DNA of 64,000 bases from Gammaproteobacteria bacterium (GTDB taxonomy: Bacteria > Pseudomonadota > Gammaproteobacteria > JADZEE01), in assembly GCA_050183625.1 (NCBI GenBank), contig JBFXBD010000008.1, forward strand, positions 2,521 to 66,520, read 5' to 3'. Below are positions 20,100-25,664 of the stretch, one piece after another (the stretch's first letter is position 1; the number at the start of each line of letters is the position of its first letter). A program made the translations under genes and the position numbers. The notes under the pieces were generated by a model. It was given only the letters and a program-made list of their open reading frames with translations, did no database searches and was not told where the DNA came from.

Positions 20100-23000
20100 T
20101 CACCGCGCGCGCTCGGCGAGGAACCCGGCCAGGATCGGCGCGGTGTGCGAACCGCGCCTGCGCTTGGCCACGGTCTCCGGCGTGCCCTCGGCGACGATCC
20201 GCCCGCCGCCGCTGCCGCCCTCGGGGCCGAGATCGATCAGCCAGTCCGCCTCGGCGATGACGTCCAGGTTGTGCTCGATCACCACCACGCTGTTGCCCGC
20301 ATCGACCAGCCGGTGCAGCACGCGGGTGAGCTTGTCGACATCCGCGATGTGCAGGCCGATGGTCGGCTCGTCCAGCACGTAGAGCGTGGCGCCGCCGCCG
20401 GCGCGCGGACCCTCGCGGCCGGGCCGCGCCTTGGCCAGCTCGGTGACCAGCTTGATGCGCTGGGCCTCGCCGCCCGAGAGCGTCGGGCTCGGCTGGCCCA
20501 GGCGCAGGTAGCCCAGGCCCACGTCCTGCAGCAGCGCCAGCGCGTGGTGCACCGGCGGATGCGCCGCGAAGAACTCCACCGCCTCGTCCACCGGCATTTC
20601 CAGCACGTCGGCAATCGAACGATTGCGGTAGCGCGCCGCCAGCGTCTCGCCGGTGAATCGCGCGCCGCCGCAGGCGTCGCACGGGACGTCGATATCCGGC
20701 AGGAAGCTCATCTCCACGTGCCGCACACCCTGGCCCTCGCAGATGTCGCAACGCCCGCCGCTGACATTGAACGAGAACCGGCTCGCCGTCCAGCCGCGCA
20801 TGCGCGACTCCGGCAGTAGCGCGAACGTGCGCCGGATGTGGTCCCAGATCCCGACGTAGGTCGCCGGGCAGGAGCGCGGGGTCTTGCCGATCGGCGTCTG
20901 GTCCACTTCCAGCACACGCGCCACCTGCGCCGCGCCGTCGATGGCACGGCAACCCGCGGGCTGGAAGCCGCCGCGCTTGCGTCCGGCGGCGAGCGCGGCG
21001 CGGACGTTGTCGTGCAGCACGTCGCGCACCAGCGTCGACTTGCCGCTGCCTGAAACGCCGGTGACGCACACCAGCAGGCCCAGCGGAAAGCTCGCGTCCA
21101 CCTTCTTCAGGTTGTTGCGATCCGCGGCGCGGATCCCGATCGCCGCATCGCCGGGCCTGCGTCGCCCGGCATCGCGCTGCGGATGGCGCGGCGGTTCGCG
21201 CAGCGCGCGGCCTGTGACGGATTCCGCGATGCGCTGGATTGCCGCCACGCTGCCGGTGCCGACCACGCGCCCGCCCTGCACGCCCGCGCCCGGGCCGAGA
21301 TCGACCACGTGCTCGGCGGCGCGGATCGTGTCCTCGTCGTGCTCGACCACCAGTACCGCGTTACCCTTGCGCTGCAGTTGCTTCAACGTGTCGATCAGCA
21401 TGCGGTTGTCGCGCGGGTGCAGGCCGATGGTCGGTTCATCGAGGATGTAGCACACCCCGCGCAGGTTCGAGCCGAGCTGTGCCGCGAGGCGGATTCGCTG
21501 CGCTTCCCCGCCCGAGAGCGTGGGTGCGGCGCGATCCAAAGCGAGATAGCCGAGCCCCACTTCGCCCAGGAATGCGAGCCGGGTGCGGATCTCGGCGAGC
21601 GCGTCGCGGCCGATCGCCTGCTCGCGATCGTGCAGCGCCAGCTTCGAGAACCACTGCGCCGCATCGGCCACCGGCAGCGCAGCGAGATCCGCGATCGAAC
21701 GCTCTCGGAAACGCACCGCCAGCGCCTCGGGATTCAGGCGCCGCCCGCCGCAGGTCCCGCAGGCGGTGGCCTCGCCCTCGTACCAGGCGTTCCACCAGAT
21801 CTCCTCGCCGCTCTGTTCCGAGTCGAACCCACGCAGTTCCACGCCGGTGCCGAAGCAGCCGGAACACCAGCCGTGGCGCGAGTTGTAGGAGAACAGGCGC
21901 GGGTCCAAAGGCGCGAAGCTGCGCTCGCAGGACGGGCACGCGCGCCGCGTGGAGTACAACGTCTCGTCCGCAGCGCGGCCTTCGCGCACCGCCACGCGCA
22001 CCATGCCCTGGCCCAGGCCAATCGTGCGCGCGAGCGCTTCTCGCAGCGCAGGCTCGGCGCGCGCGGCGACCGTGACGCTGGCCACGGGAAGATCGATGTC
22101 GTGTTCCTGGAAGCGCGACAGGCGCGGCCAGCGGTCCGTGGGCGTGGGCTTGCCGTCCACGCGCAGTTCGGCATAACCCTTCTTCGCCGCCCACTTGGCC
22201 AGATCGGTGTAGTAGCCCTTGCGCGACACCACCAGTGGCGCGAGCAGGTCGACGCCGCGGCCGCGATAGCGGGCCAGCACCGCGGCGGCGATCGCCTCCA
22301 GGGTCTGGGCGCGGATCGGGATGTCGCAGTCCGGGCAGTATTGCTCGCCGAGCTTGACGAACATCAGGCGCAGGAAGTGGTAAATCTCGGTGAGCGTGGC
22401 CACCGTGCTTTTCCTGCCGCCGCGGCTGGTGCGCTGCTCGATCGCCACCGTCGGCGGGATGCCGTCGATCGCGTCCACGTCGGGGCGCGCGGCCGGCTGC
22501 ACGAACTGGCGTGCGTAGGCGTTCAACGTTTCCAGGTACCGGCGCTGGCCCTCGCCGAAGACGATGTCGAAGGCGAGCGTGGACTTGCCGCTGCCGGAAA
22601 CGCCGGTGATTACCGTGAACCGATCGCGCGGGATGTCCACGTCGACGTTGCGCAGGTTGTGCTCGCGCGCCTGGTGGATGCGGATCGCTTCGGGCTGCGG
22701 CGCCGGCCGCGACGGGGTGTACTGCGCGGCGCGCTCGCCGATGGTGGGTGAGGCGTGCGCGCGCAACGCCGCGCCGGTGTGGCTGTGCGGGTGCGACGCG
22801 ACCTCGGCCGGCGTCCCGGCGCACACCAGCAGGCCGCCCGCGGCGCCGCCCTCGGGGCCGAGATCGACGATCCAGTCGCTGGCGGCGATCACGTCCAGGT
22901 TGTGTTCGATCACCAGCACCGAGTGCCCGTGGCGCAGCAACTGGCGCAGTGCGCCGAGCAGGCGCTCGACGTCGGCGAAGTGCAGGCCGGTGGTCGGCTC

Positions 23001-25664
23001 GTCGAACAGGAACAGCGTCGGCGGCGCGCCGCCGCGCGCGGCGCGGGACGGGCGCGCGGCCGCGGCGCTGTCGGCCAGGTAGCCGGCGAGCTTCAACCGC
23101 TGCGCCTCGCCGCCGGACAGCGTCGGCACCGGCTGGCCCAGGCGCAGGTATTCCAGGCCCACGTCGGCCAGCGGCCGCAGCGCGCGCACCACCTCCGGGC
23201 AGTGCGGGTCGAAGAACGCGATCGCCTCGCTCACCGTCATCTCGAGCACGTCCGCGATCGAGCGCGGCGTGCCGCGATCCCCGGGCAGGATCTTCACCTC
23301 CAGCAGGGTGGCGCGGTAGCGGCGGCCGTCGCAGTCCGGGCAGCGCAGGTACACGTCGGAGAGGAACTGCATCTCCACGTGCTCGAAGCCGCTGCCGGTG
23401 CACGCCGGGCAGCGGCCGTCGCCGCTGTTGAAGCTGAAGCTGCCGGCGGTGTAGCCGCGGCTCACCGAGAGCGCGTCCGCGGCGAACACCTTGCGGATGG
23501 CGTCGAATGCACCGACGTAGCTCGCCGGGTTCGAACGCGCAGTCTTGCCGATCGGCGCCTGGCCGACCAGCACCACGTCGCCGATCGCGTCCGCGCCTTC
23601 GATGCCACGGTGCGCGCCGGGCGCATCCACCGGCTTGCCCAGGTGCTTGGCCAGGCCGCGGTAGAGCACGTCCTCCACCAGCGTCGACTTGCCCGAGCCG
23701 CTGACGCCGGTCACGCATACCAACCGGCCAAGCGGGATCTCCACGTCGACGCCGCGCAGGTTGTGCTCGGCCGCGCCGCGCACCGCGAGCCGCGCTTTCG
23801 GCGCCTCGTCCACACCGGTGCCGGCGGCGATCCGGCGCCGGCCGGTGAGGAAGTCGGCGGTGAGCGAGTCGCGCGCGCGCGCGAGCGCGGCCGGCGGGCC
23901 GTCGAAGACGATCGTGCCGCCGCGCTCGCCCGGCCCGGGGCCGAGATCCAGGATCCGATCCGCCGCACGCATCACCTGCGCGTCGTGCTCGACCACCACC
24001 AGCGTGTTGCCGGCGGCGCGCAGACGATCCAGCACGCCGACGACCCGGCCGAGATCGCGCGGGTGCAGGCCGATGCTCGGCTCGTCGAGCACGAACAGCG
24101 TGTTCACCAGCGAGGTGCCGAGCGCGGTGGTGAGGTTGATGCGTTGCACCTCCCCGCCCGATAGCGTGCGCGACTGCCGGTCGAGCGTGAGATAACCCAG
24201 GCCGACGTCGACGAGATAGCCGAACCGGCTGCGAAGCCCTTCCAGCAGCATCGCCGCGGCCTGATCCATCGGCGGCGGCGGCTCGAAGGCGGCGAACAGA
24301 TCGCGGCAGCGATCGATCGGCAGCAGCATCACGTCGTGCAGGCACAGCCCCGGCAGCGCGCCGATCTGCACCGCGTCCAGCTCGCAACCCGCCGGCACGA
24401 AGCGCGGCGCGCCGCCGAGCGCGCGATCGGCCTCGGCGTGCGAGCCGATGCGCCAGAGCAGGGCGTCCGGCTTCAGGCGCGCGCCGCGGCAGGCCGGGCA
24501 GGGCGTATAGCTGCGGTAGCGCGACAGCAACACCCGCACATGCATTCGGTAGGCGCGCGACTCCAGCCAGGCGAAGAAGCGGTTCACGCCGTACCAGACG
24601 TTCTTCTTCCAACTCCCCTCGCCCTCGATCACCCAGTGCCGCTCGCGCGGCTCCAGGTCCCGCCACGGCACATCGGTGCGGATGCCGCGGTCGCGCGCCA
24701 GCCGCAGCAGATCGCGCTGGCACTCGTCGTAGGCCTTGGTCTGCCAGGGCTTGATCGCGCCGCCGGCGAGCGTCCTGCCCTCGTCCGGGATCACCAGGCC
24801 CAGGTCGATGCCCATGGTGCGGCCGAAGCCGCGGCAGGTCTCGCAGGCGCCGATCGGCGAGTTGAACGAGAACAGGTTCGGCACCGGGTCGCGGTAGTGG
24901 ATGTCGCAGGGCGCGCAGTGCAGATCCGAGGAGTACTTCCACTGCGCCCCGGGCCGGCCCTCGGCGTCGAGCTCGAACACGCTGGCGCGGCCGGCGCCGC
25001 GCCCGAGCACGACCTCCAGCGCTTCCACCATGCGCGCGCGCTGCGCGGGGTCGTAGCGCAGGCGATCCTGGAGCACGGCCAGGCGCTTGTCGTCGAGCGG
25101 TTCCACGCGCGCGTAGCCTTCGCGCGCCAGCACCTGGCGGATCTCGGCTTCGCCGACGCTGTCGGGAACGTCGACCACGAAGCCGATGGCGATGCGTTGC
25201 CCGGCCTGCGCCCGGCGGGCGAGATCGCCGGCGATGGACTCGGGTGTGTCGCGCGCCACCGGCTCGCCGCAGCGCCGGCAGTGCAGCCGCGCCGCGCGCG
25301 CGAACAGCAGCTTCAGGTGATCGTTCAGCTCGGTCATGGTGCCGACCGTGGAGCGCGAGGTTCGCACCGGATTGACCTGGTCGATCGCGATCGCCGGCGG
25401 AATGCCCTCGACGCGATCCACCTGCGGTCGATCCATCCGATCCAGGAACTGGCGCGCGTACGGCGAGAAGGTCTCCACGTAGCGGCGCTGGCCCTCGGCG
25501 TAGAGCGTGTCGAAGGCGAGCGAGGATTTGCCCGAGCCGGACACGCCGGTGACCACGGTCAGTTCGCCGAGCGCGATGTCGACGTCGAGGTTCTTCAGGT
25601 TGTTCTGGCGTGCACCGCGGATCGCGATTGCACCGGCGCTGGGTCGGCTGCGTTTCATGCTCAA
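20100..25664 (-). CDS. tandem-duplicated UvrA-like excinuclease ABC subunit A paralogue (1854 aa; two complete UvrA modules, four ABC ATPase domains)
   Basis: Each half has UvrA N-terminal [14 protein letters not shown] Walker A, Zn-finger Cys pairs, two LSGGExQR signatures and two Walker B motifs. The second module begins [36 protein letters not shown]. Confidence 0.85.

Follow-up and report, generated by a model that had tools for sequence, protein, structure and literature searches.

Class I UvrA proteins (structures 2R6F, 3PIH, 3ZQJ, and 9GXK) are subunits of ~940 amino acids (aa) that work as a homodimer. Curated UvrAs of about twice the normal length are also known, gathered in NF001885/PRK00635 (an equivalog of 1809 positions), and the fused double-length architecture as such is therefore not new to the catalogues; these curated proteins are attributed to Chlamydiae. 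Class II UvrAs (Deinococcus radiodurans UvrA2, DrrC, and Ecm16) share the ATP-binding cassette (ABC) core, keep the insertion domain, and live as paralogues alongside class I UvrA. They lack the UvrB-binding domain, and those of class IIa also lack zinc module 1 (PMC9328131, PMC5128194). Here we describe a double-length uvrA gene in a gammaproteobacterial DNA stretch of 64,000 nucleotides (nt) (assembly GCA_050183625.1, contig JBFXBD010000008.1), the whole of which is called the window below. As judged from its sequence, the product consists of two diverged class I-type modules in one chain, with all ABC motifs and all zinc modules kept. The firm asymmetry between its N-terminal and C-terminal halves (N-half and C-half) is the insertion domain, which the N-half alone carries.

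The first-pass annotation had described one uninterrupted open reading frame (ORF) with tandem UvrA-like units, and this description held. The longer frame, at 20100..25664 on the minus strand, comprises 1854 codons from a TTG, and its translation contains no internal stop; this alternative TTG start, at 25664, lies partly within the stop codon of the gene upstream. An NCBI protein of 1852 aa (P0001), recorded as "excinuclease ABC subunit UvrA" from a gammaproteobacterial metagenome-assembled genome, is 100% identical to the window protein and begins at the ATG at 25658. Residue numbering follows P0001 throughout. Each half also matched TIGR00630 (UvrA equivalog; cutoff, 729.8 bits), the N-half with 886.7 bits and the C-half with 1020.5 bits, both above the cutoff. 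The G+C content at third codon positions is 0.92 in the uvrA frame, in a window of ~70% G+C, and the codon-position G+C pattern is that of the window's other likely genes. Feature coordinates are collected in Table 1.

Table 1. Features of the double-length uvrA gene and its flanks (window coordinates; residues numbered as in P0001)
Feature	Residues	Coordinates	Strand	Description
Double-length uvrA coding sequence	1-1852	20100..25658	-	1852 aa from ATG at 25658; stop codon 20102-20100
N-half	1-961	22776..25658	-	Complete class I UvrA module
N-half UvrB-binding-type domain	131-247	24918..25268	-	Diverged; lacks ~15 aa relative to its C-half counterpart
N-half insertion domain	276-386	24501..24833	-	Pfam UvrA_DNA-bind (PF17755), 46.6 bits; sole copy in the protein
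N-half zinc cysteines	C127/130/248/251, C272/275/387/390, C750/753/773/776			
Inter-half linker	962-990 (29 aa)	22689..22775	-	Sequence and length vary among relatives
C-half	991-1852	20103..22688	-	Class I-type UvrA module without insertion domain
C-half UvrB-binding domain	1112-1240	21939..22325	-	Pfam UvrA_inter, 78.5-81.6 bits; pLDDT 89-94
C-half Trp/Glu-rich loop	31 aa	21762..21854	-	Between the Zn2 Cys pairs, replacing the insertion domain
C-half zinc cysteines	C1108/1111/1241/1244, C1265/1268/1300/1303, C1637/1640/1660/1663			
Walker A GVSGSGKS (four copies)		25547-25524, 23708-23685, 22604-22581, 21059-21036	-	
NlpC/P60 lipoprotein gene		25661..26194	-	Upstream; stop 2 nt ahead of the uvrA ATG
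Repeat element		19892-20093	-	202 nt, intergenic, immediately 3' of the uvrA stop; ~25-nt terminal inverted repeats

A frameshift or assembly error joining two adjacent uvrA-like genes at the junction had been named as the way in which the long ORF might prove to be an artefact. Nothing was found in favor of such a join. The linker at the junction is of low complexity and poorly conserved: the segment between the flanking motifs SHTGxAL and AIRIH ranges from 41 to 85 aa in 30 aligned relatives, and the mean column identity of the linker is 0.40 versus ~0.8 elsewhere in that alignment. In each of the 30 relatives, both flanks are conserved and lie in one frame, and the same fusion is found in thousands of independent assemblies, among them the complete genomes of Geobacter metallireducens (CP000148.1), Xenophilus (CP166702.1), and Cupriavidus (chromosome 2). 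The fused form likewise recurs in the 120 best protein matches and in genome loci, and we regard the probability of an artefact as negligible. The variability of the linker is as expected for a flexible tether.

The 120 best protein matches were 1826 to 2021 aa long and 63 to 69% identical to the window protein, at a query coverage of 87 to 100% (nearly all, 99 to 100%), and they included proteins of G. metallireducens GS-15 and G. hydrogenophilus. Altogether, at least 8000 protein clusters matched, with the same full-length architecture among the top matches listed. A scan of genomes, one per species, gave at least 600 matching stretches. The best 80 of these span residues 1 to ~1850 and include isolates of Bordetella, Achromobacter, Castellaniella, Rubrivivax, Variovorax, Cupriavidus (on chromosome 2), Thiomonas, Thiocystis, Arhodomonas, and Teredinibacter, and 80 of the 82 loci examined had an uninterrupted frame of 1700 codons or more. 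When a junction-spanning segment of 861 aa was searched against 50%-identity representatives, ~130 clusters of 1500 to 2343 aa were among the best 150, and many of them aligned across the junction in a single stretch (36 to 57% identity). Because an identical protein, full-length relatives, and full-length genome loci all exist, the long uvrA is a real, widely conserved gene under selection.

Intact long uvrA genes were also present in Candidatus Burkholderia brachyanthoides and Candidatus Burkholderia crenata (L055 and L074), with frames of 2008 and 1947 codons. These organisms are leaf-nodule symbionts, whose genomes are eroded and reduced, and retention of the gene there hints at selection for it.

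Four nucleotide-binding domains (NBDs) in cis, with LSGGE signatures and zinc-finger cysteines, had been noted from the ORF translation, and the motif survey bore this out. In the alignment of 30 relatives, four copies each of the Walker A, LSGGE, Walker B, and H-loop motifs were all invariant, as were the 24 cysteines of the six zinc modules. Both halves keep the cysteines of zinc module 1 (Zn1), with an insert of 125 to 175 aa at that position. The whole protein scored 1915 bits against TIGR00630 and 1970 bits against PRK00349 (cutoff, 1147 bits), above both cutoffs; taken separately, the N-half and C-half scored 896 and 1056 bits against PRK00349, under its cutoff. Identity between the two halves is 39% (598 bits by phmmer), and each lies nearer to class I UvrAs, with 769 bits for the N-half and 835 bits for the C-half in the comparisons given below. 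The duplication or fusion that produced the double-length protein is therefore old.

The N-half carries the full class I domain set: NBD-I, Zn1, a UvrB-binding-type domain, Zn2, the insertion domain, and NBD-II with Zn3. It aligned end to end with Mycobacterium tuberculosis UvrA (769 bits; E value, 7e-230). Its AlphaFold2 (AF2) model had a predicted local distance difference test score (pLDDT) of 85.8 and superposed on full-length Bacillus stearothermophilus UvrA (2r6f_A) with template modeling (TM) scores of 0.83/0.88 and a root mean square deviation of 3.7 Å. The UvrB-binding-type domain of this half is the more diverged of the two copies. A Pfam UvrA_inter (PF17760) search gave no match to it in the window protein. 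The same region is predicted to be folded (pLDDT, 83 to 93), and the UvrB-binding domains of the two halves are homologous by HHalign (probability, 97.7%). UvrA_inter was found in the N-half of 17 of 18 relatives (best E value, 6.6e-12), which rules out a family-wide loss of the domain from this half.

The insertion domain of the N-half is predicted to be helical (AF2; pLDDT, 77 to 92), and the spacing between the Zn2 Cys pairs that enclose it was 104 to 111 aa in the 39 relatives that could be measured cleanly. Conserved aromatic and basic residues lie where the M. tuberculosis β-hairpin 363-377 aligns. A Tyr also falls within ~2 residues of the position aligned with M. tuberculosis Y323, in a part where the local alignment is ambiguous.

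In the C-half, the corresponding Zn2 Cys-pair spacing was 24 to 30 aa in the same 39 relatives, versus the ~105-aa insertion domain of class I. The space is taken by a loop with the conserved motif GFDxEQTGEEIWWN, modeled with lower confidence (pLDDT, 53 to 74). The best Protein Data Bank match of this half was Clostridium thermocellum UvrA (9gxk; 835 bits; E value, 8.7e-250), and the alignment passes directly from chain residue 307 to 426, a gap of ~100 aa at the insertion domain. The AF2 model of the C-half (pLDDT, 86.1) gave TM scores of 0.74 to 0.80 to 3zqj, 2r6f, and 3uwx. UvrA_inter was found in the C-half of all 18 relatives (best E value, 7e-29), and in 120 of 120 close relatives the insertion domain was confined to the N-half. 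The initial description of two complete UvrA modules thus stands for the N-half and fails for the C-half, which lacks the ~105-aa insertion domain. Aligned half by half, the protein retains a UvrB-binding domain in both halves and an insertion domain in the N-half but not in the C-half; the UvrB-binding domains of the two halves differ just in their degree of conservation.

We compared this architecture with the described UvrA classes. Like class I UvrA, each half has a tandem ABC fold, full ATPase motifs, three zinc modules, and a domain at the UvrB-binding position, which was recognized as PF17760 by Pfam in the C-half and by HHalign homology in the N-half. Unlike class I, the window protein is a single 1852-aa chain in which two modules are joined. 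In addition, its N-half UvrB-binding domain is diverged, and its PF17755 insertion domain is present in the N-half alone and not in each module. The C-half is the natural counterpart of an insertion-domain-less class I UvrA, as engineered in E. coli UvrA Δ290-400. That mutant homodimer is without both insertion domains, whereas the window protein retains one, in the N-half. Deletion of the insertion domain in E. coli UvrA has been tied to loss of DNA-damage specificity (PMC3025350).

With class II UvrAs the window protein shares the ABC core, and its halves gave TM scores of 0.60 to 0.67 to 2vf7 and 7sh1. It differs from them in having a UvrB-binding domain and Zn1 in both halves, and in that its C-half lacks the insertion domain that class II keeps. 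Because UvrB-binding domains and Zn1 are present, the domain content indicates that the double-length UvrA is not class II. Against NF001885, the window protein scored 1083 bits (cutoff, 3054 bits), and five of five other diverse double-length representatives were also below the cutoff. Since all of these fail it, the window protein belongs to a fused lineage distinct from NF001885, one without a dedicated curated model. Literature searches on class III, duplicated, or fused UvrA returned nothing relevant, in keeping with the first-pass view that such proteins are poorly studied, and an earlier description of such a class in older reviews is possible. The long UvrA is thus common, already annotated as UvrA, and experimentally uncharacterized in the literature searched.

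With some reserve, we consider it probable that the long UvrA is a single-chain, asymmetric UvrA pseudo-dimer that senses lesions, recruits UvrB, and feeds excision repair, most likely beside a canonical UvrA and not in its place. In cryo-electron microscopy of M. tuberculosis UvrA, the insertion domain (ID) termed recognition-ID holds the flipped-out lesion and the support-ID does not; the first UvrB docks on the UvrA2 protomer whose support-ID is released; and ID-DNA contact and UvrB docking are mutually exclusive on one protomer (PMC11985968). If the two halves packed like the two protomers of UvrA2, the long UvrA would sense lesions as a monomer whose asymmetry is permanent. By analogy with the M. 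tuberculosis protein, the N-half would serve as the recognition protomer through the single insertion domain of the protein, the C-half, which has none to release, would serve as the UvrB-docking protomer, and lesions would be passed on to UvrB/UvrC excision repair. A stricter version of this proposal holds that the asymmetry is hard-wired: the N-half would hold the lesion, the C-half would dock UvrB, and the covalent link would prevent dissociation during hand-off and fix the polarity and stoichiometry of UvrB loading. We regard this stricter version as speculative and rather unlikely.

Several points weigh against the pseudo-dimer proposal. AF2 models were built for each half singly, and intramolecular pairing of the halves is hypothetical. 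The long UvrA could itself dimerize, or a half of one molecule could pair with a half of another. The N-half UvrB-binding-type domain is kept in most relatives, and it does not follow that just one UvrB is bound. Canonical uvrA, uvrB, and uvrC were not found within the 64-kb window, and no LexA/SOS box (CTGT-N8-ACAG) was found near uvrA.

Whether the long protein acts beside a canonical UvrA bears on another explanation, namely, that it is the sole housekeeping UvrA, a fused replacement of the canonical homodimer, as the double-length UvrA of Chlamydiae presumably is. Retention of the UvrB-binding domains, of all ATPase sites, and of all zinc modules would fit a housekeeping role, as would the scores of the whole protein above the UvrA equivalog cutoffs, the long uvrA kept in the two leaf symbionts (L055 and L074), and the failure to find a canonical uvrA in the window, although 64 kb says little of a whole genome. 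Each half alone, however, falls below the PRK00349 cutoff. Genomic position also speaks against this role: canonical uvrA adjoins ssb in E. coli and many proteobacteria, but ssb was not found within 6 kb of the long uvrA in any of the 82 loci. Finally, indirect support for the first-pass view of the gene as a paralogue comes from Bordetella, which is among the genera that carry the long-uvrA family (L038 and L039): Bordetella hinzii has a uvrA_1 of 1920 aa plus a uvrA_2 (PMC8302680). At least one cultured relative therefore has the long form together with a second uvrA, and the family probably occurs alongside a further uvrA, as class II paralogues do with class I; the second B. hinzii gene is known here by the name uvrA_2 alone, which weakens the point for the pseudo-dimer. 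On balance, we consider a sole housekeeping role unlikely.

Read along the minus strand, the gene neighborhood consists of a GGACT/AIG2-like gene, the NlpC/P60 lipoprotein gene, uvrA, the 202-nt repeat, and genes for an HlyD-like lipoprotein, an ABC ATPase, and an ABC-2 permease, in this order. The last three form an operon at 16860-19887 (minus strand), directly downstream of uvrA, which resembles DrrAB-type exporters and whose link to uvrA is not conserved in relatives. This arrangement raises the explanation that the long UvrA, like class IIa DrrC and Ecm16, gives protection from DNA-binding drugs without UvrB and works with the HlyD/ABC/ABC-2 exporter. The exporter genes lie on the same strand as uvrA, much as DrrAB lies beside drrC, and class IIa UvrA proteins act independently of the machinery for excision repair (PMC9328131). 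The 202-nt repeat, however, separates the exporter from uvrA, and the exporter has its own start. It is absent at the Geobacter and P0002 loci, where the window's uvrA neighborhood was not found and the genes are wholly different. Clustering of neighbors found no conserved partner gene, and no neighbor was common to more than 11 of the 82 loci (the largest cluster, an MFS transporter). Both halves also have Zn1 and a UvrB-binding domain, unlike class IIa. The idea of drug resistance raised in the first-pass annotation thus found little support, and we think a drug-protective role very unlikely.

A further candidate role, as a component of an anti-phage defense system with a UvrA-like ATPase, such as MADS mad3/mad8, came from PADLOC models: mad3 (495 bits) and mad8 (213 bits) matched the NBD regions. 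These matches reflect domain-level similarity over six stretches, and the UvrA equivalogs score far higher. None of three neighboring proteins matched any PADLOC model, so that a multi-gene mad cluster is lacking, and there is no conserved gene cluster. A defense function is accordingly extremely improbable in our judgment. Because mad3 and mad8 match UvrA nucleotide-binding domains, it can be said that some defense systems use UvrA-like ATPases.

Upstream of uvrA, the GGACT/AIG2-like and NlpC/P60 genes occupy 25661-26823 (minus strand), with a stop/start overlap (GTGA) at 26194-26191, and form a tight same-strand trio with uvrA; relatives are without such an arrangement. As the NlpC/P60 stop lies 2 nt ahead of the uvrA ATG, these two genes may be co-transcribed.

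The element at the 3' end of uvrA, first described as a repetitive extragenic palindromic (REP) element, was confirmed; it spans 202 nt, has inverted repeats, and occurs in two full and two half copies in the window. The second full copy lies at 36933-37140, and half copies lie at ~41000-41110 and ~9830-9940. The element is ~205 nt long, with terminal repeats CGCCCC[A/T]TCGTCGTCGCGAGCGCA ... TGCGCT[A/C]GCGACG[G/A]CGAAGGGGCG, and its core motif, GCGAGGAGCGAAGCGACGAAGCAA, had 6 matches in the 64 kb versus 0.06 expected. It resembles a miniature inverted-repeat transposable element and has a strong predicted fold (-110 kcal/mol; z, -3.3).

Elsewhere in the window, G+C falls to 0.64-0.68 at ~28766-36000, with a strong positive AT skew of up to 0.27. 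ORFs at 28766-30730 (655 aa) and 30793-33588 (932 aa) in this segment had no Pfam match. The segment may be foreign or fast-evolving.

Double-length UvrAs were diverse in architecture, as seen by crude domain mapping of representatives among P0121-P0270. Forms of ~2340 aa have both halves complete (P0125 and P0126), others have the halves in reverse order (P0146 and P0159), and forms of ~1600 aa are without UvrB-binding domains (P0248 and P0254); in P0132 and P0172, the N-half aligns end to end to the canonical UvrA profile. This variety suggests several independent fusions. A stand-alone protein of 914 aa (P0224; L083, 281-3025) is 57% identical to the C-half and has a UvrB-binding domain; where the insertion domain would be, it carries the Trp-rich loop of the C-half. 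As a candidate for a split, two-gene version it was not borne out, because the ORF fragment that precedes it on a contig of 3 kb is not UvrA-like. Since P0224 stands alone, UvrA without an insertion domain may also exist as a separate gene.

The occurrence of the long-UvrA family in Bordetella, Cupriavidus, Rubrivivax, and Geobacter, which are genetically tractable, makes it testable. In a protein of this kind, sites could be mutated independently in each half, which is impossible in a homodimer. Two questions remain open for UvrA: how the symmetric UvrA2(B2) complex gives way to an asymmetric pre-incision complex with a single UvrB, and how the damaged strand is chosen (PMC11985968). Widespread, covalently linked, non-equivalent UvrA "protomers" bear on both. 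If a hard-wired UvrA exists, it would be a separate, specialized entry route into excision repair, running beside canonical UvrA2, and could be used directly to settle the questions of A2B1 versus A2B2 and of strand choice. The plain name "UvrA" given to these proteins hides the possibility that two distinct damage sensors are present in many genomes.

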